DNA of 64,000 nucleotides. It comes from Psammoneis japonica. Lineage: Eukaryota. The notes under the pieces were generated by a model. That model was not told the DNA's origin, did no database searches, and saw nothing but the letters and a program-made list of their open reading frames with translations. The stretch lies in NCBI GenBank assembly GCA_008632985.1, contig QPGO01000121.1, forward strand, positions 186,001-250,000, in the 5' to 3' direction. Within the stretch, counting starts at the first letter, position 1, and every line of letters begins with the position of its first letter. Shown here in pieces: positions 5,790-61,109 of the stretch. A program made the position numbers and the translations under genes.

Positions 5790-8700
5790 GGAAAGGTGCA
5801 CTGCTGTCAACGAGTGTTCTGGAAGAGCACTCCCTTGGTCAATGAAGCCAGCTGGCGATGCCATGTTGTTGCTGCCGCTTGTCACACACTCCAAAAATCA
5901 AAGACACTGAACTCACCCAACCAGTGCTGGAGTCAGAAACTGAAAGACATCAAAACAAATGACTCTTTGTCAGTTGTGACAGTCCATTTGCTTGTCCCAC
6001 AGGAGGTTCTGCAGCAAGGACAGCAGCAGCAAGGGGAGGAGAAGGCGGGAAGAAACCTGAGTTTGTGGAAAAATCCTTGGCCAGCTGATTTTGCTCTCCA
6101 CTCCCTGTCACAACCTGCCCATGACTTACAACTTTCCATTGACCTTCAGTTGATCCCCACCTGTGTTGACATTGAAGGCAATGAAAAAAGAAAAACAATC
6201 TTCTTGCCAGCCTTTGTGTCCTCTTTCTTTTGTGGCTCTGGAACAAGCTCTCTCTGCTGGCCCGGAGGGGGGCAACATCTCTGGTGTTCCACAGCACCAC
6301 ACTGGCTCCTGCTTTGACACATGTGGTGACACAAGACCTGACTTCACAAGGAGGGGTGTGCCAGCTCCTTTTTGCTCATTTCAGTGGTTTTGCTCATCGA
6401 CCTGTTTTCCCAATGGCAAGAGCTGAGCTGTCAACGCTGTTGTGGCAGATGCCCTGCAAAAATGCACTTCATTGATTGACCAAACTGACTCCACTGCAGT
6501 CACACCTCTTTCCTTCACCTGCTTTTGCAACTCAGGAGGGCTTTTTTCTTCATCTGAGCTGAGAAAATTGATGATTGCAACAACATCGCTTTCAGAAAAT
6601 TGATGTCTGGATCTGCTGCACCCATCATTTCAACAACTGCAAATGTGCACAAAAGCAACCAACAGCAACTTGAATCTGATCTTGCTGGAGCACTTGCAGC
6701 TTGCAAGAAAAGCCATGTAAAAAGCAATCCTCTGTCTCAAACAAATGTCAAACACACCACGTTCTCTTTCCATTGGTTTGTCTTTTCCACAAACCCAACA
6801 TGCAGCCCAAATGACATCATGAAAAATGCAAACTCCCAAATGACAACCTGTCACACCCACAGCTCTGACCATGTCAGCACATTTCCTCCCAAAGCAACAA
6901 AAAGGTCTCTTGAATGCAACAAAATCTCAGCCTGTGTGAAGCAAGAATTTGCCGCAAACAGATGCTCCAGCCATGGTTCTCACCTCCTGCAGACACACAT
7001 CCACAGACACATGGCAACAAAAAAGCATGGCATTTTCTCATGAGGTTGGAAATTGGGGCCCATGCAGCAGCAGGGAGGGACCACCCAGTGCAACTCAACA
7101 AGTGGTGGACTGACACCACAAGGATGACACATCGCCGGTGTTTGGAACTTGTCTTTTGCACTTGTTGCTTGAACAAGGATGCACATCTTGTGAAACTTCC
7201 TCAGAATGTTTTGGCAGCCAGTGGGTGACAATGAATTGCACATGGCTTGGGTCAGAAAATTTGCCACTTTCCATCTTCCATTCCTTGTCCATGTAAAATC
7301 ATGTCAATTGATGTTGTGGCAAAGGCGGGCAAGTGATGAGGCATCTGCCTGTGCAATGGTTCACCCACTGCTGGCCTGTGACCCACCAGAGCCCTTTTCA
7401 GCCTTCAAAGCCAAACAAGGGAGCAATTGAGCACCTGTTTCTGTCCCCACTCCCACCATGCACACAGACACAATGAACTGCTCAGTGGTTTGCCACATGA
7501 AATCATGCACATGTGCATGATCATTGCCCTGAGCCATTGAGCAGTTTGGGGGGCACACCAAAAACAAGCTGACAGACAACAAGCCAAAAATGTGAAAATT
7601 GTGAGACATTCACAATGATGCAACACATCAGTTGGTGCAGCAACATCTGATTGATGCAGCACACACTTCACTTCAGGAGTTCACTTGGTTCTCTTTAAAG
7701 TCTGATGCACAGCCACTGCCATTCTGTTGCTTCATCATGATCCTAATTTTTTGGGGGGTCCAGCTGGCATTTGCCTTTGGTGCAAATTCCACGCGCACAT
7801 TTCTGCACACAGCTGCACAGCTCATCCTGAGCCATGTCAAGGTTTGCCACCAGTGCTGTGGAGTTTTGGCACTGATTCTGTGCATTGAACCACTGAGTGG
7901 CTCAAAATTGTGTTCTGGGGGAGTTGCCCCAAGCTCCTTGAAACCAAAATGTCAAGTGCAGCATCATTTGTGAACTGATGAAAGTTCAATTGTTGACATT
8001 GTCACATCTGCACTGAGATTGTCAATGAATGACATTTGCCTGTTGCCCAACCTTCCTGTGTGGACATGTCACATTGGCGCCACAAGTGCGTGCACATTCA
8101 TGAAATGAGTTGTTCATTTCAAAAAGTTGCAAATGCCAAAACAGCTGAGACAGTTTCAACAAAAAGCCTTTGAGGCCATTTGCACAATTGCAGAGTGCAA
8201 CACTGAAAATGGGCAACCTTTTTCTAATGCCTGGGTTTGGTTGCAATGCAAGCTGTGCATTTTTTCTTTCCATGACATCCCAGAGATGGTCGCGGCAAAC
8301 TGGTTTGCACTTGTCTTGCTGCCATTGTCACCTCAGAACTTTGTTCAACAAACAAAAAACCCGGCATTTCAACAGCCTTTGAGGCCATTTGCACAATTGC
8401 AGAGTGCAACATGGAAAACGGGCAACCTTTTTCTAATGCCTGGGTTTGGTTGCAATGCAAGCTGTGCATTTTTTCTTTCCATGACATCCCAGAGATGGTC
8501 GCGGCAAACTGGTTTGCACTTGTCTTGCTGCCATTGTCACCTCAGAACTTTGTTCAACAAACAAAAAACCCGGCATTTCAACAGCCTTTGAGGCCATTTG
8601 CACAATTGCAGAGTGCAACATGGAAAACGGGCAACCTCTTTTTGATGCCTGGGTTTGGTTGCAATGCAAGCTGTGCATTTTTTCTTTTCATGACATCCCA

Positions 8701-9850
8701 GAGATGGTCACTGCAAACTGGTTTGCACTTGTCTTGCTGCCATTGTCACCTCAGAACTTCATTCAACAAACAAAAAACCCGGCATTTCAACAGCCTTTGA
8801 GGCCATTTGCACAATTGCAGAGTGCAGCATGGAAAACGGGCAACCTCTTTTTGATGCCTGGGTTTGGTTGCAATGCAAGCTGTGCATTTTTTTCTTTTCA
8901 TGACATCCCAGAGATGGTCACTGCAAGCTGTTTTGCACTTGTCTTGCGCTGCCATTGTTGTCACCTCAGAACTTCATTCAACAAACAAAAACCCGGCATT
9001 TCAAAATTGCTTCATTGGCACTGCCAACTGATGCTGCATTCTTCAACCCTTCTCCTCCCCTTTCCCATGCAATTTTGTGTCTGATTGATTTTAAATGCAC
9101 AAAACAAGATGCTGCTGCTGCTCCAAGAGACTCAACCAAGTTTGAAGAAGGAGGAAATGTGCTCTTTTTAAGACAAAGCCACCACAAGCATGGCCCAAGC
9201 ATGTCATTCTCTTCTGTTCCACCCACTTCTCTGACTTGGGCACAGCCCATTTTTTCATTGTTCTTGATCAAGGTCCCAACAAAAAGAGTGTGCTCTGACC
9301 CTCCTCCTTGCTGGAATCTTTCTTGTTCTTGCCATCCACATGTGAGTCAAGAACTCTGGCCACAAGTTGGTCAGCACCGTTCTTGGTGCTGATGCCCAAC
9401 AGAGCTTGAAGCACGGTCATCAGCAAAGTCCATGGGACCACAAAAGAGGCACAGTGCAGCCACCTGTGGCTGCATTTTTTGCCAAGACTTGTGCCACGGC
9501 AATCTCAACATCGCCCCATGTGCAAGAAGAGAGTGCTGGCCAGTGCCATCAAGGTTCTGCTTTGGCCAGCCAAGTTGCCACTTCCCAAAATTGGTTTTTG
9601 CAGGAACAGCCCCGCTCGCAGATGCAGCACATGTCATCATCATGGCGACCGGCTTTTTCCTCGTCTTCTCCTGCCTGTTCATCATTGGAAGTGCACGCTT
9701 GGTGGGGGGGATGGCTGTTTTGGTGGTGCATTTCCATTTGCTCTTGCCACATCTTCCACCAAATCTTGGACTTGATCAAAATGCTGTCCCACCAAAATCC
9801 AGAGTCCTGTCCGCAATTTTGTGAATCTCCACACACTTTTGAGCATGCAT
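5790..9850. mobile_element. Decayed, unclassified repeat/transposon block, TpA- and CpG-depleted
   Basis: Abrupt switch to TG/CA-rich composition, almost no TA, few CG; only Cys/His/Gln-rich spurious ORFs; no confidently recognisable protein motif. Confidence 0.6.
8166..9003 (+). repeat. Tandem repeat, 4 x 209 bp
   Basis: Unit start gcctttgaggccatttgcacaattgcagagtgc at 8166, 8375, 8584, 8793; copies nearly identical. Confidence 0.95.
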
Positions 9851-10032
9851 GAACTTTCCGTTCAGTGTCAATGAACGCCTTCAGAAATGCATGGAGTCTC
9901 GCGACCGAGTTTCACGCCGAGCAACGCGTGCGATGAGAGGCCGGATTTTTGCTGCCGCCGGCGCGGGCGGCGTGAGACAAGATGTTGCGGGATGCGGAGG
10001 CTACAGTTGTGCACACTTCAGCACCTCACACC

Positions 10033-19444: not shown

Positions 19445-19895
19445 GTGCGAGGATCACCTCTCACCATCTCTGCTCTAGGTCCTGCTGGCAGCTAAAGCCA
19501 CAATGCCTCCTCCTCGCGTGTTAGGAACCTACGAAGTTCAGACAGCCACTCTGGCATCCACTTTAGAGAGAGCGACAAGCAGCCCAGTTACAAGAGAGGG
19601 AAAGAGCTGTTGCAAACCAAACAATTTTCAGCACAGCACACAATCCACCCCCAACCAAACATTTTGCGTTTGGGTGTCTTCGAGATGCGCGGATGGCACA
19701 CCTCCAGCATTGGACTGCACAGCTCATTTCTGATGCCCACACATCTGGCTTCACTCAATGACACCAGCACTGTGCCTGGTTGCCTGCAAGAAGCAACCCA
19801 CCAATGCGCTGCATGCAGGCGGATCATGTGGATGATGAAGCCGCTGTGCACTCGGGTCTTTCAGGTTCAAGGATCACCTCCACTCATTGCTTGCC
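19445..19895 (-). pseudogene. Duplicated fragment of the RBR last exon/3' flank, hypermutated
   Basis: 19565-19813 aligns with 31702-31953; 19851-19895 aligns with 31621-31666; same orientation. Confidence 0.85.
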
Positions 19896-19899
19896 AGCA

Positions 19900-21740
19900 G
19901 CTTGGTTGCTTGGTGTGGCCGAATCAAGAAGCAGCTGCCAGTGCACTGTAACTCAACAAGTGATCATTGGGCAATGAAGGAAAAAAGCTCAGGGGGGGCG
20001 CAATTTGGGGGAAGTCTCCACCAGCCAGCAGCTGGCTAAAGAACCTTGTGTGGAATTTGTGCTGGGAGAGTCTGTCAATCTGTGCATCAGGGGGGTTTGG
20101 TGAATGCAGGACAGAATTGACATCTTTTGTGTGCATGAAAATTGCACTGGCAAAACCCCCAAATGCACCACTGATGGGCAGACTTTTTTCAGCCAGCACG
20201 CTGATGCTGGCTGGAGATTCCCCCCAAATTCAGTTTAGTTGGCAGCATTTTGCTGTGTGCATTTCTGCAGTGCAGGGCAACCAGCCATGGCCAAGCATCT
20301 CTTTTCCATTGTCAAGCAATTTGATGCCTGACAGGCTTCCTTTTGTGTTCATGTTGTTTTCATTGGCCACAATTTGATCACAATGCCATCATTTTTTGCA
20401 TCTCACGTGTTTGTTTTTCATTGGATTTTCAACAGCACCACAGTCCACAATCATGGTGGGCATGATTGCTCGCATGGGTGCTCTGCACAAATGATGTCAA
20501 AACACACAAGCCACAACAAAAGGGCTGCTGCAACAATCTGGATTTTGTGTGTCACGTGAGAGCAGCACAAATGATGGCACTTAATTTTCAATGTTTGAGT
20601 CCAGATGTTCTTGATCCATGTCTCATCACAGGTGGTGTGTGGCATTCTTCTTGGCCACAGACACATCACATGCATGTTTGCACCAAATGTGGTCATGTTT
20701 GTTTGCAAAATTGCCTCTTTCTCTGTTGGCAATCATTGATGTGTGCATCAGCACCAAATGACTTCATGGCACAGAGCTTGCATGTGGAATTTTGTGGGCC
20801 CAACATCACACGGAGCCCCACCTGCTGGAGAACTGGAACACTTCAGCAAATGGCATCACACACCTCTCAAGCCATTGGCAAATTTTGAGCTGCAAAACTG
20901 CTTCAAAATGAGCTCTTTCAACTCTTGTGTGCACAAAACAGTTGAAATTGATTTGCCTTTTTAAGACAATGAGGGAGACAACTGCATCAGGAAATTTTGA
21001 TGCAAATGCTTGAGCACCATTGCATTGACACCATTGTCATGGCACACCACAAAAAACACATTTTGCTGCCAACCTGTCAGCATTGTTGTGACTTTCAGTC
21101 TGGAAAGTGACATCAAGTGTTTCCAACAATTAAGAGAAATTGCACACAGAGAAGTCATTTCCGCAAAATGAAGCCATCTTGTTTGGCACATTGTCAGGTC
21201 TCCACATCAATGGTGTGATGCATTTTTGAGTTTGTCCACAAGTGCATCTTCCCATTGTCACTCACAACAATGCACCAATTTTGGCAAGCAGCACCATGGG
21301 GAGAAATTGCTGGTGCCAATGACCTCTTGTTGTTGCACCAATGTGCTGGAGCCACATGCACTTGCTCTGTGTGTCAACATTTGTCAACCACACAGCACAA
21401 ACAGCACCATCACGAGATGCATGAAAGGTGTGCTAAAGGACAAGCAGGAGGTGCCGGTGCTGTTTCTGCCAGTGGTGAAGATGAGCAAAGACTCTTTGCT
21501 GAACTGCTTTTCTTGAGAATGAACACCTTGACAAAAATGAACTGACTCTGAGATGTGGATTGAGCATGCTCAATGGGGCAACAGTGCTCCCAAAGCATCC
21601 GCATCAACTCAAAAAGTGCCACAAACAATGGGGGTGAATCAGGTGGGTGCAGGATGCTGTTGAAGGAATGACCTCTGAGATTGAGCTCCTTGAAAAACTG
21701 AATCAAGAGAACACACCAGCTGATCTGCCAGAAGCTTGTT
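19900..21740. mobile_element. Decayed, unclassified repeat block, TpA- and CpG-depleted
   Basis: Same composition signature as the other decayed blocks; no confident protein motif. Confidence 0.55.
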
Positions 21741-21742
21741 CA

Positions 21743-21884
21743 GGGGCGTGCCAATGTCCACAGGGGACCCAGTTCCAGACAAGAAGGACACTCCACAGCC
21801 TGATCGTTCAATTTCAGATTTTCCTTTTATGTCTGAACCTGCCTGAATGCGTTCCTCTGTTGCTCTGTCAAAGTGGAAGACCTT
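21743..21884 (-). pseudogene. Diverged duplicate of the 3' coding part of the neighbouring FG-GAP repeat gene
   Basis: ccacaggggacccagttccagacaag…gcctgatcgttcaat…tggaagacctt aligns with ~22133-22269. Confidence 0.85.
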
Positions 21885-24596: not shown

Positions 24597-25299
24597 CCCA
24601 TCCCCACCAATTGCCTGTCTCTAGAATCAGATCACCGCAAGAAGTCGTACGAGCAAAGCGACACCAGTCGCTGGCATGCAAGTCGCAGAGTGCGCTGTGA
24701 CTCCTCTTGGCATGCATGCATCACAAGCTTGACAACTTTTGGTGTTTGTCCGCCCTTTTTCAACTGAGTGTCGTTTTGTCTGATTTCTCAAGAGTTTTTT
24801 GTTTGTTGGTTTGTGCAGAGAATGCACACCATGATGCACACATGGGATCAACAAAAACACCCTCCATCATCTTTTTTTGCTGACACAGAGGCAATCAAGC
24901 CTGACCACACAATGTTGACTTTGCCACACACGTGTTTGAAAGACACGCACAAATGTGTTCTTCTTGTTGCAGGAAGAATTGCTGCTGATGTCGCTTTCTG
25001 TCATAAAAGACTTTGGAACAGTGATGCCTTGGGACAGCAATGCTGCAAACACACAGCCATGAAAATCATGGCGATTTGGGCAGAACTGACCAACAGTCAG
25101 ATGCGCCCACATCACACCATGAGTGAAACCCCGCCAAATTAAACAAAAATGGTGCACAGAGTGTCAGTGTTGGAATCAATGCCATGACCCATTGTAACAC
25201 CACCTTTCCACCACTGTCACTCTGCCACCTCAGCTTGCTTGTCATTGCCAGCACTGCTGCAATTTTGCAAGCAAATGCTGTCCAATTCACTCTGTGCAA

Positions 25300-26210
25300 A
25301 AGTCACAATGGAAATGTCAGAAAGGGGGGAGATTGGCTCTGCTGTTGTGCAGCAAAGATCTTTTCTGAATGAGGCCACAAATTGGTTTGCAGCCTTGGCT
25401 CCAGTGCTGAAGATGTGCTGTGGACCTGACCCACTTTAGCCCATGTGTGAAAGTGCTTGCACCGACTTGACGACTTGTGATCGCTGCTTGACTTTTGATT
25501 GTGTTCCAAATGAATTGCCCATCAATGTGGAGCCATGGCATGCTTGCTGCTGGTTGTGTGACCAAGGAAATGGGAAGGAGGAGCAACAAGCAAGTGTCGT
25601 GGCATCCTGGTGTCCTGCTCCCCACCTTGTTTGGTCTTGTGGGTGCTGGGTGCTTTGTTCCCGAGTGAGGAGGACAAGCAAACAAGAACTCCAAAAGAGT
25701 GTCATCAGAGAAACATTCCAAATGATGTCAGCAGGGGCAGAGAGGCACTGCATTGAATGGCTTGCCAATCTGCCTCACCAGATGAAATGTCTGCAAAAAG
25801 AACGAGAATGTGAAGACTGCACTCATCATGTTGGGAGCTGCTGTTCTTTTGGACAATCGCCCATGATCCATGATGTGGGTGGCCCCCTTTTCTTTTTTTT
25901 GCCCTCCCACCCACCCTTGATGTGGTGGAAACTTTTCACTCATGGCAACCTCCCAGAGCAAGGAAAGATTGGCTCTGCTGCTGCACAGCAAAGATCCTTT
26001 GTGAATGAGGCCACAAACTCCCTGGTTTGCAGCCTCAGCTCCTGCGCTGAAGACATGCTGCAGGCCCTGACTTGACTTTTGATTGCTGATTTGCTTTTGA
26101 CTCTGTTCCAAATAAATTGCCTGTCAATGTGGAGTCATGACATGTTTGCAGCTGGTTGTGGGACCGAGGAGACAAGGAGGAGTTGCAAGAAGCAAGTGTT
26201 CTGGCACCCA
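25300..26210 (+). repeat. Diverged direct duplication (~25300-25610 vs ~25940-26210)
   Basis: gattggctctgctg…cagcaaagatc…tgaatgaggccacaaa…tttgcagcct at ~25331 and ~25967; many mismatches are reciprocal TG/CA. Confidence 0.85.
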
Positions 26211-26214
26211 CTCT

Positions 26215-29200
26215 GTGTTCATTTTCTCAACAGTCATTTTCATTTGTTGCATCTGGCTTCTGTTTTTGGGTGAAGCAATTTCTTGTCAGCAATGCACTGG
26301 ATGTCAAATGTTGCATCTCTTTCAAAGACCAGTTGTCCTGGTGTGGCTTGCACCATGGCACATGACATGTCTGCTGAATGCACTGCAAAGGCCCCTGCTT
26401 GCAGCATTCCAGCAAAAGGATCCTCAGCATCCAGAGGAGCATTTTGTAAATCAAGTGTGCACATGATGTTTCCCAGCACTTGATGCACATGCTCAACTGT
26501 GGCATTTTTTGTGAATTTGGCGTGGTTGCGGGTTTGCATTTTGTGCCGTGGTTCTCTTTAACCATCTTTTCAAACTGGTGTCTGATGAACTCACTTCCAC
26601 GATCATTGGGTGATTGATGACAGCCAAGGGAAACCACTTGGCCATGTCTGTTTGAGCAGACCTGCAATGGTGTTGTGGATTTCTCATTCAAAATTTCTGC
26701 TGCTTCAACCATCCAGTTGCTGGATCAATCATTGTCAAATGTTTCAGGATTGATTTTTTTGTTTCTGCCCTTGCAAGGCACTTTGCATGGTCCAACAAGA
26801 TCCACAACATGGTCTGTGCCATGGCACTGATTCCATGCACTTGGGAGGCAAATGCCCACATTTCTTGTTTTGTTTCTTCTTGAATTTCTGCATGTCTCAC
26901 ACTTGGACACACATTTTCTCATGTCTTCCCATGAGGCAGGCCACCACAGGTGTTGTGAGATTGTCTCTTCAGCTCCATTTTTTGTGCCAGGGTGAAGAAG
27001 GCACACACGATGCCCATCTGTTGCTGTTTTTTGTAATGTCTTTGGAACAATGATTTCATCTTTGTGACATGTGAGCAACTGGTCTTGCTTGCCTCCACAA
27101 AAAGTCTTTGCATGACATCATGTCCTGTCTGACAATTTGGAGAGAATGTCTTCATCCCATTTTGTTCAGCATCAAGAATTTTGTGAGTCAATGGACAGAC
27201 ATTGTTTCAGGATTCATGTGTTGTCTTCTCAGCCAGTTCTTCAGTGCTGAGATTTTCCACAGGTCCCATTTTCTTCATGTCAAGTCAGCTGATTGCATCT
27301 GCAACAACATCAGCCTTGCCCTTGAGGTGAGCTGTTTTTGGGCTGCACTCTTCTGTCATTGGATGCCAATGCATGACTCTCTCTGTTGTGAAGTTCTCAT
27401 GAGCAAGATTTTTGTGATCGTGTGTGTCTTTAACCAACTGTTGGCCAAACCATTTTGTTTGTTGTTGTGGCTGTGGAAGGCAACAGGTCAGTTGTTCTGT
27501 GTGACAACTGCCCCCAATTGAGAATTGATTGCATTGGCATGTGTCTGAAAGGGTTCATTGAAATGTTGGTGTGATGATGATGTGCCTTTTGACACAATTT
27601 GCTTCATGTTTTTGAAGGCATGCTTGCTGATGAAATGCTGCAATTCCTTTCAAGTTGTGGGGGTTGCAATTGCTTGAACCACCACCTCCACTTTCTCAGG
27701 CATCAGTTGAAATGCCATTTTGGGTGATGTGGAAGCCCAAGCAATCTGCTTCAGGCTTGGCAAAAATGACTTTTTGGCATTGATCTTCAACCCAGCTTGT
27801 TCAAGCCATGTGAATGCCATCTCAAGCTTTCTGAGGTGATCATCAAAGTCACCTTTTGTCAGGCACAGCATGTTGTCATCACAAGTTCTGATGAACTCCA
27901 AAACTGCCACATGCTTGCTCGTGGGTTCTTGAAAAACATCCAGGACTCTGCAAATTCCCGCGGGGAGTCTGCAGCATCAATGCTTGCCCCGTGGCATGAT
28001 GATCATGTGCAAGCAATGTGCATGTGGTGTCAACTTGACATGACAGCATCCCGTGTTCGAATCAAGTGAGGTTGCATGCATGGAACCTTCCAGGTTCTGT
28101 GGCATGTCCTGAGCATTGAGCAAAGGGAACAGAGTGCATGTTGACCTCTCACTCAGCTCATGGAAATTGGACAGAAACCAAACTCTGCCATTTTTCTTTG
28201 GTTGAACAAACTTTGGAGCTGCCCATTCAGAGTGGTTTGCTTTTCTGAAGACCTTTTGCTTGCATGATCTTTCAACTTCCTTTTGAGCAGTCACTTCCAA
28301 GGCTCAGAAAATGGTTTTGCATGATGGTTTGGCACCCATCTTCAACACAAGATCAACCAGTTTCCTGGTCCAATTGCCTGGGAGAACCATCAAAAAGAGG
28401 TTCAAATCTCACATTGTCAAGGCCAGCAGCATGACAGCTGGAATCAAGATTTTGTTGATCCTGTCATTGAAAATGTTCATGGCATGTGATTCCTCAATGT
28501 GATTGGCTGTTGGCACAAACACTTTGGCATTGAAGAGTGCATCAACATTTCTCACAAGCAGTGAGGCCGCATCTTCCAATTTGATTTCTTCATTCTTAAA
28601 ATCAATGTGATTCCAAGACTGCTCATTGGGTCACATCCCATGATCATGTCACAGCAACTTGAAGAAGTGGTGGTGTCATTCATGTGCGCTGTCTTTTCAA
28701 TCAACTTGTTTTCATTGAAATTGGGTGAAAAGAACTGTGCTGCACATCGCATGTCAGTTGTGAAGAGCCCACCCTTGGTTTCCCAAGTTTGGGTGGCAGG
28801 TTTCTTCATTCTCAATTTCTGCTTAACTTTTGCACAGAATTGCAGAGAAGTGTCCATGTGGTGATGACCACTGGACCAGCAAGCATTGCTTTGACCCTTT
28901 TTTTGGGTTTCCCAATGTCCAGCAATGTGCAAGACTCCTTGACAGAAGCTGGTCATTCTCTGAATCACTGCGCAAGTCAATTTTTCAAATTGGCATTTTC
29001 CTTGCTGAGGGCATCTGAGTCATGTTCCTCATCCTTGCATTCTTCATCATTTGTAAGGAACTTGCCTTTAGAGTTTCTTTGACTCCCTGAGCAATCATGG
29101 TGTTCAGCTCTTCCTTGGGAGTGGCATTTTTAGCATCATGATGAGACCACATGTGATTGCCATTTGAACATTGCTTTTGGGTTCCATTCAAAGTTCCCCC

Positions 29201-29800
29201 AATGTTCTTTTGCAAAAGACCTTTTGGAGAATGCAATTGAGACAACAGATTGTCCAGATGCAACCAACATTGAAACCTTGTGTGTCAACATTGTTGGTTG
29301 ATTGTGCGTTTGCATTTTTTGACATCCGATTGGCTCTGTGTGACTGATCTGTCCTTTGCACACATCCATGGTTGTGGTGTCATTAACACACATGCAACAA
29401 TGCACAATTGCAGCTGAATGTGCACATTTGTTCTTGCTTGACAATGCATGTTGCATGGTGGATGCAGACACATGTGTCATTCTTTTTTGTCGTCATTGGC
29501 CATGCAGTGGTTGGTGTGTTTCTTAGAAGCTTTGATGGCACATGGGCATGTGGGCATGGGACAAATCTTGTCTTTCAAGTTCCGCACAGTGTGTTCCAGG
29601 GTCACATGGTTCTCATGAACATTTTGCACACAAATGTGCACAACACAATTTGTTTAAATTGTCAAACGGTCATCAAAGCTCAAACAGTCATTGTGTGTTT
29701 GGCCCAATTGCAACAAGAATGCTGACAATGATTGCACACATGACAATCTGTGTGGTGCAACTCATTTGGAGGGTCACCAAATGGTCGTTGGAGCTCAAAC
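26215..29800 (-). mobile_element. Ty3/Gypsy LTR-retrotransposon remnant (gag-PR-RT-RH-IN)
   Basis: RT: SEWAAPKFVQPKKNGRVWFLSNFHEL and EFIRTCDDNMLCLTKGDFDDHLRKL…AGLKINAKKS; IN: HPG…ETISQHLWWP…CETC, LTMIDPATGW, TPGQLVFERD; RT before IN = Gypsy order. Confidence 0.9.
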
Positions 29801-31915
29801 AGTCTTTGGATGTTTGGTGCCAGAACACTGATTGTGTTCACACAAAGTGTGTGCACTGCAATTTGTTCTGAGGGTCAAGTGGTTGTCAGACATCTAATGC
29901 TCACATGCTTGTGCTGTTTGTTGCACATTTGTCCCATGGTCAATGCAATTGTGGTCATGTGGCCAGTGTTCTTAAGATGCAGGTGTCTTCTGGCCCAATG
30001 AATGTCACTTGGAGTTCCACCCAAGAGGGCTGGAGTGCATCCAGCATTCTCCAGAAGAGATGTGTCCTCCCCAGCAGCAGAAGCATTGGCAGGGGTCAGC
30101 ATTCTCCAATGGAGCAGTGCCCCTCTCACTGTGAGAAAGGGAGGTGCTTCAGCCACAGCCACCTGGAAAAGAGCAATGGCATGGCACAGCTGGAGCTGCT
30201 GGGCTCCACAAAGAGATGGATGGGCAGAACAACCAGCCACATGGGTCATCAGTTGTTCTCCAGATGAAGTGCCCCAGTGGAAGGTGTTTTTACAGCACTC
30301 ATGGCATTTTGAAGAGCAGCCCTGGTGCAATGCAGTGCAAGTCGTGAGCTGTGATGGATGCATCAGAGGGTGCTTCAAAAGACAGTGTGATGCTTTGGAA
30401 CATGACAGCACACCCTTGTTGACTCAGTGTGAATGTCAAGTTGCATCATCACATCTGCAGAGAGACAAACAATTGTGCTCATTTGAGCTGCACCAAAGAA
30501 CTTGCATGTTGACAAGAGTCAACATTCTTTGAGTTGGGCAGTGTGAACATCAGGTGTGAAGTGAGCAGCAAAGTGTGGCTCAAATTACAAAACTGTGTCA
30601 CAGGTGAGGGAAACAAAAAGCAGCAGGCTGTGAGCACAGAATTGAACAACTCTGATGACTTGCACATTGTGCGCAGCCTTCCACCACACAATCAATTGTT
30701 TTTGGGGGGGGGATCAATTGTTTTGGGGGGGGGGGGGGGGCAGTTGCATTCCTGCCATGTTGCACCACTTTGTGCTCTGCCCAACCTCTTCCCACTCTTC
30801 AATGTCACCCAACTCATCACAATTTTTAACTTCATTTGTGCCAGTCTCTGCAGCCCAGCAGCACCACAATTTTCTGCAAGTGTGGGAGACTCCTCTGGAG
30901 CCAAACATCCAGAAATGTCACTGGCAGCAATGTGCTCATTTCATGTTTGAGGCACATGAAGCTGGTTGTCAAAGCAACCCAAACTTGTCCTGGATCATTT
31001 TCTTTGCAAGTTTGCAGCTCCAAACATCAGTGCAAGTTCACACAAAAATCTCTTTGAATGATCCTGCAGCTCTGCCCTCCAAGCTGTCAATTTTTGCTCT
31101 CTCACCCACAGGGCGCTCCTTTTTTGAATCTCTGATGTCATTTTTCTGTTTCACCAATGTGTTTTCTACACACTTTTCTGGCCAGGCAAGCTTTGAAAAA
31201 AATCTGGCAGCACTTTGCATGCTCCCTCATGCTTTGTTCTTCCTGACCAACACAATTAGAAACTGCACTGCAGCAAAATAATCAGAAAGAAACGCTGGCA
31301 TGCTGACAAGCACAGTGGCAGAACAGCCTGTTGGATGCTTCCAGCTGCAGGCAATGTTGCTTTCAGATCCCCTGGGGGATGGCAAACCTTGAGCATCTGT
31401 TGCCTGCAGCTGGACGATGGTTTTTGATGTGCTGCAAAGAAAATTCCTTCCAATGCTGTCGGAGACAATTCTCGCGATGTTGTTGCATCTGAGAAAGGAA
31501 ATCAGAGATGTCAGAAATTAACGACAAAAGTTTTACAGATTTCTTTTTCAAGATTTCCCTTCTCACGAAATTTCCGCATGCGCACTCTCTAGAGAGGGGT
31601 ACTCCCTACTCTACCTACTCCTCGGATCTTTCAGGTGCAAGGATCACCTCCGCTCATCGCGTGGCCTATGGTCAGTTACTCTCTCAGACATTCATTCATT
31701 CGAGAGAGGGACAAGTAGCCCGTTTACAAGAGAGTGAGAGAGCTATCGTAAACAAAATAGTTTTCAAAGCAGTACCTAAACTACACCCCAAACACATAAT
31801 TTGCAAGTCTTCGAGGAATACATTTATAGTATGTTGTATAACCCCAGCGTTGAACTGTACAACTCATTTCTGCTGTCCAAAGATCTGGCTTCATTCAATA
31901 ACACCAGCACTATGC

Positions 31916-34900
31916 CTAGTTGCCTGCAAGAAGCGTCCTACCAACGCGCTGCAGATCCTGGATAGGGGATGATACACGAGAAAAGTGAGGACGTGAAAAG
32001 AAGAAGCGAAGAGCATATGCCTATCGACAGTGACCACGTACTGTTAAACCAGCGCCTCCAAAGCTATATAACGTTCTTGTTTTCGGCGCCATTTCTTCGG
32101 GAGAAGTAGACCATTCATCGACATGAATCTTTACGTTACCTTCCTCCACCGGAGCATGGCCGCTTTGGTCGAGAGAGCTCTCGCTGGAGGGGGACGCAAC
32201 GTCTCGGCGGGCGGCGTTCACGGTTACGCCAATCATTGATTCATTGTCAGAGGACACAGATTCCTTGGCGGCAGCGTTAAGGGGAGCGCCATTCTGAAAC
32301 TCTGTCGTCGTCTGCGGTGACGCTGCTTCTTTCATGGAATTGCTATGCAACAAGAAATCCTTCATCTTTGGAATGACCACCTTGTTGTAGAGATCGATAA
32401 CGTTTCCATGTTTCTTCTTACCGGGTTGCTCCGGTGCGTCCATGGGAAGAATCCGAACTTGCCTGACTAATTTCTGGCATTCGCGTTCTCCAATTTCTTC
32501 CTTTCGGATAGTTGTGTATGCCCCAATGATCTTGACAAAGGTCAGTTTGGCCTTTAGCCTCGTAACCCTGGTGACTCCGTAGATAGTGCATAGGATCAAT
32601 TGGTCAACGTGGTGGTCGTAAAGGAGCTCGATATTGTGCCTGAGAAGGTGACGGAACGCCACCCAAATTTGAGATGCAACAGGAAGGGGTACTTCTAATT
32701 TTTCGCAAAGGGCCGAAATGCGAGAATGGGACATTCTAAGGATCTTGCGAAGGATGTAATCCACGAAACGATACTCAGGGTGTTCCGCAGTCTCCTTGTC
32801 CATTGTTCTACATGAGACGAGGTTTGCTTTGCCGGCCTCCACGAGTTCTGCCCGTAACGTGGGCAACAAGATTTCCGTTGGCCAAAGGGGCTGCTGACCT
32901 GCCACCTTTAAATTGTGCTCTTGGAGTTCCTCGATCGTGTCCATAATACTGTCACCCGCGGCATTGAGATGGCATTCGTGAGACCATAAAATTGAGTCCG
33001 TGATATTAACCTCGTATTGCAGCAGATGTTGTTGAAGAAGGTGGGGCAACACACCGATCGGTGACACCCGTTCGTTTGAACTAGGCGGGTCGGACCTGAG
33101 AATGCGCAAGAACGTCTCGCTCACTTTTAAATAAGCGTACGGCGTGCATTCCATCAACTGGAGGGTAGACTTCAGATTATGCATCTGGTAGTCTTCGCCG
33201 AGCAATTGCTTGCTGCAGAAACCGACTGCCTTGAGGACACAAGCGTAGCTGCACGCCAAAAGAGCCCTGTGGAACGACTCGTTTTGTATTAACCGGGGAT
33301 GCGCCGCCGATTTTAAGCGGGCGGTCTCCTGAAATAAGAGAATATCAAGTACGTGAAAATACAACGATATAATGGCCTTGCATATCTTCCTGTCTGGGTA
33401 CATTCCATCGTCGCCACCAGTGGCAAGTTCCTTAAAGATCACTTCGCCACTGCCTTGGGAGATTGCAATACTCGAACCGGCGCCGTTGTAGCCTTGTAGT
33501 TTGTCAACGACGCGATACAGAACAGCGAAAATAACCGACCGCCACCCTCCAGAAAAGGATTCGGGTACGTCCCTCAAGATATTCTTCATTTTCCAGCTTG
33601 ACAACTCGTCGTCACTGGCATCGAGGTACATTAATAGTCGAGGGCTTGGCTTGATTTTCGTAACCATAAGGATTGAGAGAGTCCATTCGTTGAGCTCCAA
33701 TGCGTCTGTCCTCAAATTCTTCCGCCAGTCTGACGACCTCAACGAAGAGACAAGTTCCGATATGTCCTGCGATTCCGAAGAGACAGTGATAACCGAAGGC
33801 GAAGACGCTCTTCCAGACACACTAGGCCTGTATCCGTTAGTGACAGCTAAGGCATTATTGTCGGGGGCGGCATTCGGCGATTTGGGCGAAGAAGCAATAG
33901 TACACAAGCGTTGAATCATCAACGCCGGATTGGACGGCGAGATGGCAAATTCGTCAACATACGGAACCCACTTGATCACACTCTTCGCCACATTTTGTTC
34001 AGTGCCGCTAGTGCCCGTATTTGCAACTGATGTACTCAGTGCGCCAATCAATTCCATGTTTGCCTTCACAAACATTTCGTCGATCTTTGCCACCGGAAAC
34101 TGTTCGTTTGACAGAGCAAGTCTCAATCGATCGTGAAAGCTCGTCGCGGGCTCCTTTGTTTCTTGTGAGGCAGGTGTAGAAGCATCTTGCGTCGCAATCG
34201 CCATAATTTCCCTTTCAAGTTCGTCCTTTGAGAATAATGGGCCATCCAGGACACCCTGCGCGACCAGCCAATTGTACAACGAATTTGAGACAGAAACGAC
34301 CGAAGCTAGAACATCCACTCGTCCCACTGAATGGCTCGGCGACCCTTGCGAACTTCTGGAAGATGATGTGTCACTGCTCATCATTGTCAAGGCGGCAATC
34401 GCCTCGTCTTCAATGGAAAGGCGACTACGCTTCGCGGCGCGCTTCTCGGAGTCGGGGCTGACTTCCTTGGCTGCCGGTATCTTGGGCGGCAAGCCGTGTT
34501 CTCCTCTGTTCGGCTCTTTTCCTTCAGAGCCACCCGACGTACTTACCAGCGGCGTGTTGACAGTGTTCGTTGGAGTAGCTACTCCTCTCTTGTATTCGAC
34601 TTGACCCGGAGAAAGAACCAGCAGCAGCCCCATGCTAGCTGCGCTTGTTAGGATACGCTTTCTCCGCTTTGCCTTTTCCACGGAGGCCTCGTCCTGGTCT
34701 GCCTCAGAAGTGAGTTCGTCAAGCAAAAGCAAACGGTGCTGTTGCAGAGTAAGAACGCAAGACAGCTTCCATGCGTTTTCCTTGAGGACTTGGCGATTGG
34801 GAGATACATCCTGTCTGTCGTGTCGCTTCCTCTTGGCCTTCCTTACCATACCACAATACGCTTTCCATATAAAGTCAAAGTCGGACAGAGACTCGACTAC

Positions 34901-51291: not shown

Positions 51292-52245
51292 ATGACGCAC
51301 GCAACAGCCGCAAGAGCGGCTTCCCTGCTTGCTCGTAGAGCTGGGCGAAGTGCTGCCTTGTCCTCGGCACGCTTTTCGGTGGCAAAATCGACGGCTATAA
51401 GGGGTATGGCAACCGTGACGGGAGGCAGCGCTCTGACAAAACTTGCCGAAGCTCACCCTCACATGGAAATGATCCGATACGAACACAAGAATGACAAGTG
51501 GACCTTCAAGCAAATTGAGTATTTTGCGGATGCATTGGCTATTGGAATCTTGGAGAATGGATTACAACCCGGTGATGTTGTCCTCTCATGGCTTCCCTCT
51601 CATTTTTCCGAGACGGTGAGACTTCTAGTGTATCAAAGTATGCTAAATTTTTCGCACGGTCAAAGATGCTCACATTTTCCCTTCACTCTTTTCTCTCAAC
51701 AGCACATTTTGCAGTTTGCTTGCTCCAAGGCAGGATTGATTCTTTATAATTTAGATCCCGCTCAGGCCATAACGGATCCTGAAGGTGCCAAGGAATCGCT
51801 CAAAAAGGCGCTCGAGGAAACAAAAGCCAACGTGTTGATTACGCAGGAAGCGGGAAACGATGTCAATTATGTTCGCTTGTGCGAGGAGATTATGCCCGAG
51901 CTCCGCATCTTTGACTTTACGGATGGTATGCCATTCATTACACCGCGATTTCCCCATCTGAGATTCCCGGTTCATACCGGCTTTGATCAGATTGACAAGT
52001 GGGGTATGCTTCCCTTCAAACACATGCTCGTGCCAAGCGGTGAGCTTGACAATCTCACGGCTGGTTTCAATCTCTCTGGTTCCACTCCTCTCATGGGACA
52101 GCTTTCTACCGGAAAAGATGGATTGCCATCCAAGGGAAAGGTGTTGACAAATGATGAAGTAGTGAAGAGTAACGTGTGGCCAATCTTTTCATCCGTGTTG
52201 AAGAAGCAGTACCAAGAAGTGGAAGGTGTTGGCGTCATCTTCTAA
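51292..52245 (+). CDS. Short AMP-binding (acyl-CoA synthetase N-domain-like) protein with mitochondrial-type presequence; intron 51616-51702
   Basis: Arg/Ala/Ser-rich presequence; WTFKQIEYFADALAIGILENGLQPGDVVLSWLP…QFACSKAG typical of the ANL N-terminus; stops at ~290 aa. Confidence 0.7.
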   Translation: MTHATAARAASLLARRAGRSAALSSARFSVAKSTAIRGMATVTGGSALTKLAEAHPHMEMIRYEHKNDKWTFKQIEYFADALAIGILENGLQPGDVVLSWLPSHFSETVRLLVYQSMLNFSHGQRCSHFPFTLFSQQHILQFACSKAGLILYNLDPAQAITDPEGAKESLKKALEETKANVLITQEAGNDVNYVRLCEEIMPELRIFDFTDGMPFITPRFPHLRFPVHTGFDQIDKWGMLPFKHMLVPSGELDNLTAGFNLSGSTPLMGQLSTGKDGLPSKGKVLTNDEVVKSNVWPIFSSVLKKQYQEVEGVGVIF

Positions 52246-54838
52246 AATTAGCAGGCATAACTGTCTCGTACTGCAGCAAAATTACATATCTTTGGCATGC
52301 GCCTTGTAAAGATAGTCTGTTAGACTACACTGATTCAGCATGTTCAAAATGAACTGAGTCGTAATCCTTGTTCACTGTTCGTATTTTTTCATTCTAATGA
52401 ATGTTGGAGGTCGGGCAATTTTCTGAGAGAGGCGAGATGACAGCATCGTGCGTACCGTACGATGTACAGCACTACTCTCTAGCTAGTAGAGAGTGCTGTG
52501 TGTATATGTTTTTTACGTCGTAATGTTTGCCGTCGACAAAAGCTATGAACTTCCCGCCTGCCACTGGCACTTGCAACTGCTCGGTTCCTTCGACGGAGCC
52601 GTCAAGAAGACAGACAAAAAGAGTAGCATGAACGACAATCTGAAAGCTTCACGCATGGCATGGATCCCGCACAGAACAAAATCATTGGCTCTGATGACCT
52701 TCCTGTTCCTGACAGCGTGGGCAGAGTGTTTGTGTCTCATCCAATCACCTTTTTGGCACTCCACACTGCAACACATGGCCGCATGACATTTGCTGCACTG
52801 CAGTTTTTTTTTTCAAGTTCCTTCTGACAGTGATCACACTCCAGATGCTCCTCCTTGCCAGCCTGCAGCATTGAGAATTAAATGTCTTTGAGTTGGATGG
52901 CCTGATCCAGCAGATTGTTGGCATGGTTGTGGTCAAAGAAGAGCTCCCAAGCCAGCTTGCAAGCCACAAAGAAAAGCTTCTTCAGGTGTGCTGGTCCATG
53001 CAGCAAAGCATGGTTGGAACATCTGGATTGCGGGAAACACAAAGAACCAGATGTGTTGAAGAAAAGACACTTTGGCTCCAGGCTTGGCTCACTGCCACAT
53101 CAACCCCTGACCAACATGCACACAAGAGCAGTTGCAAAGATGGCCGCAGCACAAGGCATCAAAGATTTTGCATTTGAGGGCAAATGTGGAGACAACCTGC
53201 ACAATGCTGATCAGACTGCAGAAGTGGAAAGCAACAACGATGAAGAAAATGAACTCAGAAGATGATGACCATGAAGACAAAAAGTGGCCTCTGATGAAAA
53301 GTGTGAAGAAGCAAATGAGATCCCAGCCAATGAAAGATCCAGCCCTGATCAACAGTGCCAGAGCAACAAAATTAAGAACGAGGATCATGATGACTGCAAC
53401 AATGCACCAAAGAAAACAAGGAAAGTGAAGAGCCAGAAAAAGACAAGAAACCCAAGAGAACAAAAGATGGGAAGGAGAAAGACCAGTGGATGAGGCAACA
53501 GCTGTGACTGGCAGAAGAGCCAGGTGTGGCAGAGCCTTCCATGCTGTGCACATGTTCAGAAACACAAGAGCACATTCTGAAAGAAGAAAGTTCAATTCAC
53601 AGCAGTGGCAGACACCACAAAAGTGAAGCACAAGCAAAACAGACTTGAAAGCTGTTGCCATTCACAATGAATGTGAGCCCCAATTCAGAGGATGACATCA
53701 AGCATGATGCAGAAACAGCAATTGTCAGCCAACTCCAATCCAGAAAGGGCACTTCCTTTGACCAGCAGCATTTGTTGCATGAAGACCTAAAAGTGTTTGG
53801 CCAGAGGGGGTTGTGACACCTCAGAGAAGGAGATGAAACAACTCTGCAACAGGGTGTGCTTTGCACTGATGTCAGTTGAATGCACAACTCCAACTGAGAG
53901 GACTGTCAAGGCTGTGATTGCATTGACATTCTCAACAAAGAAGCAAGATGGTCGCATGAAAGGGTGAATGGTTTGCGATGGAAAACCAGCTGCAGAATGG
54001 CCAGACAAGGATGATTCAGCCAGCCTGATGGCCAATGACAGCCATTGTCGACACTGTGGAAAAGTGTGATGTGATGAACGAGGATGGACCAAATGCACTC
54101 ATTCCCAGACATCAACCCCAGAGTCCACCAAGGAGGGTGAAGACCAGAAAATGGTGAAAGTTGCAGGAGTGTTGTTCAACATGCTGGTGAGCATTGATCT
54201 CAACCCATGCAAACCACACGTGGTTGCAGAACAGGAGAAGAGAGTCCTCTGTGTCCAAGTCATCAGAGCCACACATGGCATGTTGGTCACAGCTCCACAG
54301 CAGTGCAAGCCATTTTGCAAGGACCCAGAGAAACTTGGGTTCAACCCTTCAATCCATGCATTGCCAATTGAGTGGTCAGCAGTGGCAAGCAGCACGCTGC
54401 ACATTTCCATCATGTGGATGACCCACTGTCAAGCCACACGAACCCCCAAAAGCAAAAAATGACAAATTCTCAAGCTGGCTTGACAAGATGTGCAGAAGCC
54501 CTGGCACAAAGTTGTTGTGACATGAGGAAAGAAGCACAACTGCCTTGGAATGGTCCTGGACTTCAGCCACAAGGGCAAGGAAAAAGTCAACATGACTGAC
54601 TGCATTCTCACAAGATTGTCAGTCAGCTCCCCAAAAGAGATCAAGAGTGCGGATGCTGCCATGATGCCAGCTGGAGAGAACCTGTTTGATGCCAGTGGCA
54701 CGAGATTGCCAACCAACAAAGCAAGGATGTTCTGTGCATGGGTGGCCAAGGGACCATTCGTGTCCAAGAGAGGCTGCACGGGTGTGCACCCTGCCATTGC
54801 AGCATTGTGCACACAAGTCAGAGAGCTGACCAACAAGG

Positions 54839-55023
54839 TGACAGAACACCAAAGGGGAATGAGGACAGCGGTGTGACAGACTCCCCAAGCAATGTGACTG
54901 CAACAACATGAGCACTGGCAGAAAGAAGTGAGAGGCAGATCTCAGAGAGATCTGCTCGTCCATCTGAATGGTCTGGTCATCATCCATGCACAGTCTGTCC
55001 ATCACAGGACAGACAGGCTGACA
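54839..55023 (-). repeat. 3' LTR of Copia B (185 bp)
   Basis: tgacagaa…ggctgaca; adjacent to PPT; aligns to 59015-59175 with a 24-bp indel. Confidence 0.92.
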
Positions 55024-58000: not shown

Positions 58001-58610
58001 GGCATCAATGTGGTGACAGCATTCATGGTCACAATGGACCAGCGAACTCTTCAGGGTGACTTCTCTGCATTCCTTGTGATCACATTGTCGCAAACCTCCT
58101 TGGGCAGAGTGTTGGGATTGAAGAGATGTTTTGATGTTGTGGATGATGTGGTGCCTCCTGATGTCTTGCCAGCAGCAGTTGAAGGCGGAGCATTGTTCAA
58201 TCCAAACTTGTTGAGTGGTGCCACTAAATCATTCACACCAACAGCTGCAGATCCTGCACTGGTCGAGGATGAGGGTGCAGGGGTTGTCTTTGGCTTGTGT
58301 GGGGTTAAAAAAAACTCACTCCAATCCCTGCAATTCCATTGCATGTCAGGATCAACATGGACATGCTGCATCAACATGACAATGTACAAAGATTGTCCAT
58401 GATTCTGAAGAGTAATTTTGATCATGGAAGAGAGAGCTTCAGGAGTCAAGCGGATTGTGTGGAGCTTGTCAGGGTCAACAACTCAAAGAGGTGCTTGATC
58501 CACAATTGTTTTGGCAGACTGCATGTTGGCAGGGTCTGTCATGCCAGGTGGGATTGCTTGATTGACAAGACAATCATGAAACAAGTCCACAATGTTCTTC
58601 TTAGGTTGAG

Positions 58611-58688
58611 CATGCTTGGGGTCTTCAAAGAATGGATCCAGATCAAACATGCTTGGGGTCTTCAAAGAATGGATCCAGATCAAACATG
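58611..58688 (+). repeat. Perfect 37-bp tandem duplication inside Copia B gag region
   Basis: catgcttggggtcttcaaagaatggatccagatcaaa at 58611 and 58648. Confidence 0.95.
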
Positions 58689-59014
58689 GAGTTCATGCAA
58701 AGCATGATCAGGGGCATGTGGAGATGTGGCATTGAGACATGTGGTTGGAACTCACAACAGATCTCTGCAACAGATGCAGAAGCGGCCTTTGCAAGGTTGG
58801 GAGATGCCATGGTTTTACCTGGTGAAAACATTTTTGGTCATGCACACGCAGAAGAAATCTGGCATGTTTCTATGAGCATGAAAAATGCCGGGAAAGTGAG
58901 AAAAAAATTGTTTCAGGAACAGAAGATGAGGCTTGGTTGATTGGCTCACAAAGCAAATGAATTAAAACAGAAAGCATGGTGCAGAGTTCAGTGGCACAGA
59001 GTGAGGCTCCAACC

Positions 59015-59175
59015 TGACAGAATGCCAAAGGGGGACAAGGATGGTGGTGTGACAGACTCCCCAAGCACTGGGACTGTGATGACATGAGAGCTGGCAGAAA
59101 GAACTGCTCGTCCATCCAAATGGTCTGGTCATCATCCATGTGCAGTCTGTCCATCACAGGACAGACAGGCTGACA
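59015..59175 (-). repeat. 5' LTR of Copia B (161 bp)
   Basis: tgacagaa…ggctgaca followed by TSD caagg. Confidence 0.92.
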
Positions 59176-61106: not shown

Positions 61107-61109
61107 TCA

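Follow-up and report, generated by a model that had tools for sequence, protein, structure and literature searches.

When nearly every TA dinucleotide has been removed from a piece of DNA, do the few that are left lie there by chance, or do their neighbors record how the removal worked? This question is raised by a 64,000-nucleotide stretch of the genome of the diatom Psammoneis japonica (GenBank assembly GCA_008632985.1, contig QPGO01000121.1, positions 186,001 to 250,000). This whole stretch is referred to here as the window, and positions are counted from its first letter. One block in it, termed B3, is almost devoid of TA and contains the remains of a Ty3/gypsy retroelement. An earlier note on this DNA had claimed that the TAs surviving in B3 stand almost all within TTA or TAA, and had taken this as the footprint of a sequence-specific process. 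Here, we examined the survivors in B3 and in the other TA-poor blocks of the window (B1, B2, B4, and a younger element, B5; Table 1) and weighed the processes that could have left them.

Results

Contexts of the surviving TAs

The window was surveyed in 500-bp steps, and the observed/expected ratio (o/e) of each dinucleotide was computed. Four stretches (B1 to B4) were nearly free of TA and CG, with TG/CA at approximately twice the expectation. TA o/e was 0.00–0.12 within the blocks compared with 0.34–1.2 in the intervening genes, which held 10–35 TA per 500 bp, and the block edges were sharp; in B3, the values per 500 bp were 0–0.12 for TA and 1.7–2.3 for TG/CA. Together, these old blocks comprise 20,134 bp, with o/e values of 0.04 for TA, 0.16 for CG, and 1.86 for CA/TG. 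Among all dinucleotides, only TA and CG were depleted and only CA/TG was enriched, and the gain of CA/TG, ~45 per kb, equaled the summed loss of TA and CG. AA, AT, AC, AG, and GA were at the background level (AA o/e, 1.19 vs 1.16), and the GC content was 47.2% in the blocks vs 48.4% outside. Because the other dinucleotides remain at background and GC is not raised, GC-biased gene conversion is ruled out; with depletion at TA and CG only, the same holds for GC-biased drift, as the earlier note had argued. No DNA similarity among the blocks was found by blastn comparison of the window with itself, so they are not copies of each other.

B3 retained exactly 25 TAs, 24 of which are preceded by a T or followed by an A, in agreement with the ~24 of 25 counted before; the exception is a CTAC at 31167. 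The words quoted at that time were all located (cataaa at 25004, attaaa at 25140, tgtaac at 25195, tttagc at 25437, tttaac at 26559, cttaaa at 28597, and cttaag at 29973). Survivors in B1 (9/9) and B2 (7/7) were exclusively TTA/TAA, also as claimed. B4, on which the earlier note had not drawn, provided an out-of-sample test, and 14 of its 17 survivors were TTA/TAA (p = 2.7e-4 against the background and 1.8e-3 against transposon relatives).

Four null models were set against these counts. The base composition of B3 gave an expected TTA/TAA share of 46.9%. NTAN usage gave 38.4% (621/1618) for unmutated DNA of the window (40,065 bp) and 44.9% in 78 loci (351,139 bp) of intact element relatives, which were drawn from metagenome contigs and had TA o/e values of 0.56–1.18. 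Among TAs creatable by a single substitution in the present blocks, the share was 47.1% for transitions (2196/4667) and 46.1% for transversions (2691/5839). By contrast, 54 of the 58 survivors pooled over B1 to B4 were TTA/TAA (p = 7e-14 to 7e-15), and B3 alone, with 24/25, gave p = 1.6e-9 to 1.7e-7. Even with base composition modeled, survivor contexts did not match background NTAN frequencies (93% vs 38–47%), and the selection of survivors by context is borne out against all four nulls. TTAA was the best-kept word, as had been suggested, accounting for 20 of the 58 survivors compared with 4% of TAs in the background and 8% in the transposon relatives. The resistance of TTA/TAA is not absolute: these contexts are still depleted 5–10-fold, and B5 has lost TTAA sites that other copies keep.

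Retention by flank and tract length

Retention was defined as the density of each strand-symmetric class in the blocks divided by its density in a proxy for the ancestral DNA, given below first for the transposon relatives and then for the window background. TTAA was retained at 0.195 and 0.62 (20 survivors), TTAG/CTAA at 0.100 and 0.245 (15 survivors), TTAC/GTAA at 0.108 and 0.131 (15 survivors), and TTAT/ATAA at 0.024 and 0.038 (4 survivors). The six classes without TTA/TAA, with 4 survivors in all, were retained at 0–0.013 and at up to 0.024, respectively. The order is TTAA > TTAS/STAA (S being C or G) > TTAT/ATAA, the last being about as low as the rest, and a single protective flank helps only if the opposite flank is not a 5' A or a 3' T. 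The target [ACG]TA[CGT] put forward in the earlier note is right in that survivors are selected by their flanks but too simple in its form, since ATAA/TTAT are kept hardly better than the unprotected classes.

The dependence extended beyond the immediate neighbors. With survivors oriented as TTA-N, a T was found two bases upstream in 49% vs 33%, and an A at the second and third downstream bases in 51% and 45% vs 26% and 29%, respectively. When the T-run on the 5' side and the A-run on the 3' side were added up in length, retention for sums of 0 to 4 was 0.006, 0.053, 0.112, 0.138, and 0.459 (run of at least 2 vs run of 1, Fisher p = 1.5e-4), and the run classes differed from those of the single-substitution arrival model (chi-square p = 6.7e-24). 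An internal control that uses no outside proxy, the share of TA among TA + TG + CA sites, increased with longer runs, both in the old blocks (0.002, 0.012, 0.028, 0.043, and 0.12) and in B5 (0.042, 0.02, 0.10, 0.136, and 0.375; chi-square p = 2.8e-4), whereas in unmutated DNA it dropped from 0.265 to 0.10. Single-flank survivors on the plus strand comprised 22 TAA and 12 TTA, a difference that was not significant (rough two-sided binomial p ~0.1).

The CGs that survive in B1 to B4 (185 in 20,134 bp) were also biased in context, in the opposite sense to TA. Relative to the background, CCGC/GCGG, CCGG, and GCGC were best retained (0.24–0.26) and TCGA least (0.054). Among the product words, TTGC/GCAA was in greater excess than TCAC/GTGA (11.1 vs 4.0 per kb); no conclusion is drawn from excesses of xTGy/xCAy because products derived from CG contribute to these words as well and the composition of the ancestral DNA would have to be assumed.

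Rates of TA loss

Under pure decay from a transposon-like composition, log-survival gave relative loss rates of about 1 (unprotected), 0.7 (TTAT), 0.45 (TTAS), and 0.3 (TTAA). A per-strand Poisson fit, with the rate set by the 3' neighbor of the A, gave 3.11 for T, 1.92 for C, 1.90 for G, and 0.71 for A, that is, the order T > C = G > A. In a model with steady re-creation of TAs, the ratio of arrivals to survivors implied 15–36-fold slower loss for TTAS and TTAA. A 2–4-fold difference in rate is thus sufficient for the pattern under pure decay, and up to 15–36-fold is called for with ongoing re-creation; because about 99% of the unprotected TAs are gone, a modest difference in rate is amplified into 54/58.

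Models with flank-dependent rates were then compared by maximum likelihood. With transposon proxies, the negative log-likelihood was 18.4 for an additive per-strand model, 16.4 for a multiplicative duplex model, and 56.2 for a constant rate; with background proxies, the values were 18.1, 18.5, and 74.4, respectively. The earlier suggestion of an enzyme or a DNA-shape effect is supported in that the loss is selective for context; since the additive and multiplicative models fit equally, duplex shape and enzyme subsites are not told apart.

Only 4 unprotected TAs were found in the 20,134 bp, compared with the 4667 sites that lie one transition away from TA, and B3 has lost 47% of its conserved residues. 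So few unprotected TAs in an element of an age at which about half of these residues are gone make some continuing action likely, and a putative mutator likely keeps acting on old elements.

Identity of B3 and B5 and direction of change

The integrase domain Integrase_H2C2 was detected by Pfam in B3 at 26728–27117 on the minus strand (E = 4.7e-6; 27.1 bits vs a cut-off of 25.5), together with a weak RVT_1 match at 27653–27976 (20.5 bits, below the cut-off of 29.6). B5 gave a Pfam match to the integrase zinc finger and contains the gag, a protease-like stretch, and the integrase of a Ty3/gypsy relative; no reverse transcriptase match was found within the part of the element inside the window. 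When the B5 integrase frame was used as a query, 413 longer homologs were obtained, typical Ty3/gypsy polyproteins of ~1070 residues, the best being 60% identical. The 91 intact homologs of at least 900 residues were used as tblastn queries and matched the window in B3 and B5 only. On this sequence evidence, B3 is identified as a dead Ty3/gypsy element. No long terminal repeat (LTR) pair was found for B3 by blastn at a word size of 11 or 7, possibly because the element is too decayed or truncated, and no LTR pair of a single insertion was found in the whole window. As for the B5 gag, a search of metagenome contigs gave no close relative (none of 181 pattern matches was confirmed), and none of its 17 matches in the protein collection exceeded 43% identity.

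The homologs also revealed the direction of change. At conserved columns (at least 70% agreement among at least 40 aligned homologs), B3 kept 242 of 454 residues and B5 kept 170 of 223. None of the conserved Tyr residues was kept in either element: the columns contained 8 His and 7 Cys in B3 (0/18 kept) and 4 Cys and 4 His in B5 (0/10 kept). Conserved Tyr columns that are now His or Cys indicate that TA became TG or CA in the DNA, and TAY codons had become CAY or TGY in about equal numbers, i.e., on either strand. For conserved Arg, 7 of the 26 columns were intact in B3, with changes to His, Trp, and Cys, and 13 of 14 were intact in B5; CGN codons have decayed in B3 and not in B5. The long open frames of B5 are no sign of function, since TA-to-TG/CA changes cannot create a stop and CGA-to-TGA changes have not yet occurred there.

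B1 contains a tandem repeat whose units differ at such sites. CTAA in units 1 and 2 corresponds to TTGA in units 3 and 4, and at one further position two units have TG and two have CA. This split bears the signature of an ancestral TA or CG that was hit on different strands after the repeat had formed. On the right margin of B1, TA erasure seems to reach past the CpG-depleted part toward the host gene. Since B5 and this margin lack TA and still have CG, TA loss precedes, and is independent of, CG loss.

The younger element B5 and its copies

The 29 survivors in B5 consisted of 7 TTAA, 8 CGTA/TACG, 7 single-flank TTA/TAA, and 7 others. Outside TTA/TAA, 8 of 15 TAs abut a CpG, compared with 78 of 338 TG/CA sites in B5 (p = 0.013) and 170 of 997 such TAs of the background (p = 0.0017). 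In the B5 frames, five Tyr codons are left, and four of them precede a codon beginning with G; selection is an unlikely cause of the CpG-adjacent survivors because no conserved Tyr column was kept in B5. An adjoining, presumably methylated, CpG may hinder the putative mutator, although the numbers are small.

Copies were sought in three sequencing runs of one sample, X1 to X3. The contigs of run X1 have a depth of ~58 over unique genes, and 5379 of them are at least 80% alike to sequence at 44–64 kb, mostly B4 and B5; their summed depth is not a copy number, and runs X2 and X3 cover small shares only. Run X3 is probably RNA, since its contigs skip GT..AG intervals in host genes (e.g., 51614 to 51702). 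Among the 40 places listed out of 1869 at which copies in X1 and X3 differ, a sample that is possibly unrepresentative, 32 lie in the B5 area. Sixteen of the 32 are TG/CA in B5 and TA in the other contigs, and 8 are CG vs TG/CA, in both directions. At 62854, 62877, 62954, and 63078, B5 has TTGA or TCAA vs TTAA elsewhere; at 62854, an A accounts for 90% of the contig depth. To judge from these copies, TTAA is slow rather than immune. A 494-nt X3 contig with a depth of 161, aligning at 62769–63194, showed 36 differences from B5, mostly TA where B5 has TG/CA, a hint of transcription from a family member with fewer mutations.

A TA-rich, unmutated element lies between B4 and B5 (Table 1). In X1 contigs that do not carry it, 60309 is joined straight to 61107 with 3 letters in common; from these joints, it is a later insertion into DNA of the B5 family. 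Because this 796-bp repeat is unmutated, repetition alone is insufficient to draw TA mutation, at least where the element is short or young. The adjacent 160 bp at 60150–60311 continue into B5 in other copies and yet are TA-rich here (9 TA), and at one place, other copies read TG and this one reads TA. A single family, and even a single locus, is therefore a mosaic in its mutation status.

Other features of the window

The window is nuclear DNA of ~49% GC from an intron-poor eukaryote, with long single reading frames that encode a retinoblastoma-family protein, a cyclin, a tubulin-tyrosine ligase, a nitrite reductase, an MBOAT acyltransferase, and others. The best named homolog of the nitrite reductase frame is from the diatom Stephanopyxis turris (80% identity), and another is from the diatom Epithemia (63%). 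Two unmutated 250-bp stretches that are 74% alike, at 19563–19813 and 31699–31953, stand just before B2 and just after B3. The features discussed here are collected in Table 1.

Table 1. Stripped blocks and associated features of the window, with their TA and CG counts
Feature	Position	Strand	TA	CG	Remarks
B1	5800–9850		9, all TTA/TAA	40	
Tandem repeat in B1	8162–9004				four units of ~209 bp, 90–97% alike
B1 right margin	9170–10001 (832 bp)		0	30	up to start of tubulin-tyrosine ligase frame (9976)
B2	19800–21750		7, all TTA/TAA	16	
B3, block of the finding	24700–31480 (6781 bp)		25	47	
Dead Ty3/gypsy pol remnant in B3	26300–28653	minus			reverse transcriptase to integrase; stops and frame shifts; colinear tblastn matches in several frames
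B4	52700–60050		17, of which 14 TTA/TAA	82	
TA-rich unmutated element	60312–61107 (796 bp)				between B4 and B5; perfect 18-nt terminal inverted repeats; subterminal GGGGTGTAATT-like repeats
B5, younger element	61100–64000	minus	29 (o/e 0.19)	186 (o/e 0.87)	cut by window end

Discussion

A probable graded, context-reading process on transposon DNA

Taken together, the data make it probable that transposon DNA in this window was hit in place by a context-reading mutator that turns TpA into TpG or CpA at a graded rate set by the flanks. Such a mutator would act on TA steps by A:T to G:C transitions, with ordinary CpG decay acting as a separable process. Its rate would be highest where the target A precedes a T (TAT/ATA), intermediate at TAC and TAG, and lowest at TAA/TTA, dropping further with longer 5' T-runs and 3' A-runs, so that TTAA and longer junctions would be the last to go. 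In a young, CpG-rich element, TAs abutting a CpG would also be spared. Slower base-pair opening within A-tracts could account for the effect of tract length, whichever base-flipping enzyme is at work. The agent may be a base-modifying enzyme that acts on DNA and is guided by a mark of silent or foreign DNA, and the leading candidate reaction would be adenine deamination to hypoxanthine, as proposed for Bigelowiella (see below). The direction of change on both strands, the confinement to transposon-type blocks, the independence from CpG decay, and the graded dependence on flanks are supported directly. A more specific version is possible but tentative: a chromatin-directed defense of diatoms, acting throughout the life of a dead element through a duplex-reading enzyme that is poor on T-run/A-run junctions and hindered by methylated CpG, and belonging to the same ancient system as that of Bigelowiella.

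Several points weigh against this reading. Enzyme, lesion, and chromatin mark are all putative, a bias of attack and a bias of repair are not told apart, and a thymine-directed route or context-dependent repair would leave the same record as adenine deamination. The ancestral sequences were replaced by proxies, namely, flanking genes or metagenome relatives of 45–60% identity, and the retention values rest on these. In B1, B2, and B4, no transposon domain was found by a Pfam scan that covered 96 of the 172 block reading frames of at least 70 codons; over the scanned frames, the scan yielded 3 transposon-domain matches and one weak unrelated match. Against a picture of constant rates, single-flank TTA/TAA sites of B5 were kept no better than unprotected ones (7 TA to 182 TG/CA vs 15 to 338), and for TTAS/STAA, ~11 survivors are predicted from the rate ratios of the old blocks and 4 were seen (Poisson p = 0.015); the GC content of B5, 54%, may be partly behind the poor single-flank retention. 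Over 426 bp compared with a less mutated X3 contig, a small and perhaps unrepresentative sample, B5 had lost 4 of 4 TTAA, 4 of 5 single-flank, and 7 of 10 other TAs. These losses are compatible with a 2–4-fold difference in rate (p = 0.04–0.09) and not with a 36-fold one (p ~6e-6).

Alternative explanations

The alternative that fares best places the bias in repair. TAs would be attacked uniformly, and the lesion, e.g., hypoxanthine opposite T, would be repaired better within a T-run/A-run, so that the survivors form a repair footprint. The sequence does not separate damage from repair, and the tract-length gradient suits an effect of DNA structure on any enzyme that opens the base pair. This explanation has no positive evidence of its own, needs an extra component, and must account separately for the sparing of CpG-adjacent TAs in B5. 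We consider it improbable, though worth keeping in mind.

It is much less probable that the present TAs were re-created by point mutation after hypermutation had ended, with contexts that mirror the composition of the blocks. Given the number of sites one transition away from TA, some of the 58 are probably new. However, modeled arrivals by transitions and transversions, respectively, yield the TTA/TAA shares given above and TTAA shares of 7.3% and 5.6%, vs 93% and 34% observed (p ~1e-13), and they do not reproduce the run classes. A dipyrimidine bias of arrivals would predict many TTAT and CTAN, both of which are rare. As a sole explanation, re-creation is contradicted.

We give even less weight to changes made in RNA before reverse transcription, i.e., ADAR-like A-to-I editing of double-stranded transposon transcripts. 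ADAR accepts a 5' U or a 5' A and favors a 3' G. B3 and B5 are retroelements, and A-to-G change that affects both strands and prefers a 5' U is ADAR-like; the preference is mentioned in the Bigelowiella preprint (bioRxiv 10.64898/2026.01.13.699255). On the other hand, AA is untouched, no retroelement domain was found in three of the four stripped blocks, and TA loss continues for 832 bp where B1 is no longer stripped of CG, as far as a host reading frame. The units of the B1 tandem repeat differ at TA/TG, which places the change after repeat formation.

That TTAA and T-run/A-run junctions are under selection for a function (insertion targets, signals, or structure) is scarcely credible, as no supporting point was found, the elements are dead, with stops, frame shifts, and all 18 conserved Tyr of B3 gone, the same bias recurs in four blocks without shared DNA similarity, and retention is graded by tract length rather than bound to one word.

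Comparison with known systems

RIP (repeat-induced point mutation), known from Neurospora and other ascomycetes, changes C to T mainly at CpA and yields TpA and AT-rich DNA. The process in the window resembles RIP as a transition hypermutation of transposon or repeat DNA with a dinucleotide target that kills frames and leaves the genes beside it untouched. The chemistry is opposite, in that TpA is destroyed and GC is unchanged here, and the unmutated 796-bp repeat sitting between mutated blocks is a further difference. RIP was rejected as a candidate on the TA and CA/TG o/e values of the old blocks and on their GC content, and an ADAR-type footprint on the unchanged AA and the fitted 3' order. 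CpG decay of methylated transposons proceeds through deamination of 5-methylcytosine. The low CG o/e of the old blocks, the TG/CA product, and the Arg replacements in B3 are like it; unlike the process studied here, it leaves TA untouched, and it is slower than or separate from TA loss, since B5 and the B1 margin keep CG.

The closest parallel comes from Bigelowiella natans, in which TpA hypermutation affects the integrated DNA of giant viruses and virophages (Mettrop et al., bioRxiv 10.64898/2026.01.13.699255). According to the main text of that preprint, two integrated viral regions had acquired 231 new mutations, of which 230 were A-to-G or T-to-C, each of these 230 at TpA; the events arose de novo, at a rate raised ~1000-fold, in some lines only. 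Clusters poor in TpA and rich in CpA + TpG were enriched for reverse transcriptase and DDE domains, and a DNA-acting adenine deaminase was proposed. The present case shares the A:T to G:C transitions at TpA that give TpG/CpA, evidenced here by Tyr columns, dinucleotide balance, and copy differences. It also shares the confinement to foreign or mobile DNA, with B3 and B5 of Ty3/gypsy type here and B1, B2, and B4 without a domain. It differs in the host, Rhizaria there and a diatom, a stramenopile and thus of a different supergroup, here; in depth, with a TA o/e of 0.04 against a Rho of 0.45 given for their viral region; in the coupling with CpG loss in old elements; and in that de novo events were observed there and are deduced here. 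Full-text literature searches for TpA-restricted hypermutation returned the Bigelowiella preprint alone and nothing on diatoms, and flank dependence is absent from the main text of the preprint. We regard the process as a variant of this recently described hypermutation, to which the flank rule is added here.

As to the enzyme, the preprint cites work on amphioxus ADAT2, a tRNA adenosine deaminase that performs A-to-I and C-to-U changes in DNA (PMC10354150). In that report, single-stranded and hairpin DNA were acted on, with 5'-GAA-3' as the context for adenine and 5'-TCG-3' for cytosine. The TadA/ADAT class to which it belongs is the class proposed for TpA hypermutation. These contexts do not match the footprint described here, which requires a 5' T and disfavors a 3' A.

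Implications

For annotation, the presence of long open frames is no evidence of function in DNA of this kind, because TA-to-TG/CA changes abolish TAA and TAG stops without ever making one. For the search for the enzyme, the flank rule serves as a fingerprint: a candidate deaminase or thymine-modifying enzyme must give TAT > TAC = TAG > TAA, lose activity with the length of the T-run/A-run, and possibly be inhibited by a neighboring methyl-CpG. The same signature, much deeper, in a diatom would make the process a widespread one in the major marine phytoplankton. If the reading as a defense is true, it would be a counterpart of fungal RIP with the opposite chemistry that spans the SAR (stramenopiles, alveolates, and Rhizaria) lineage.

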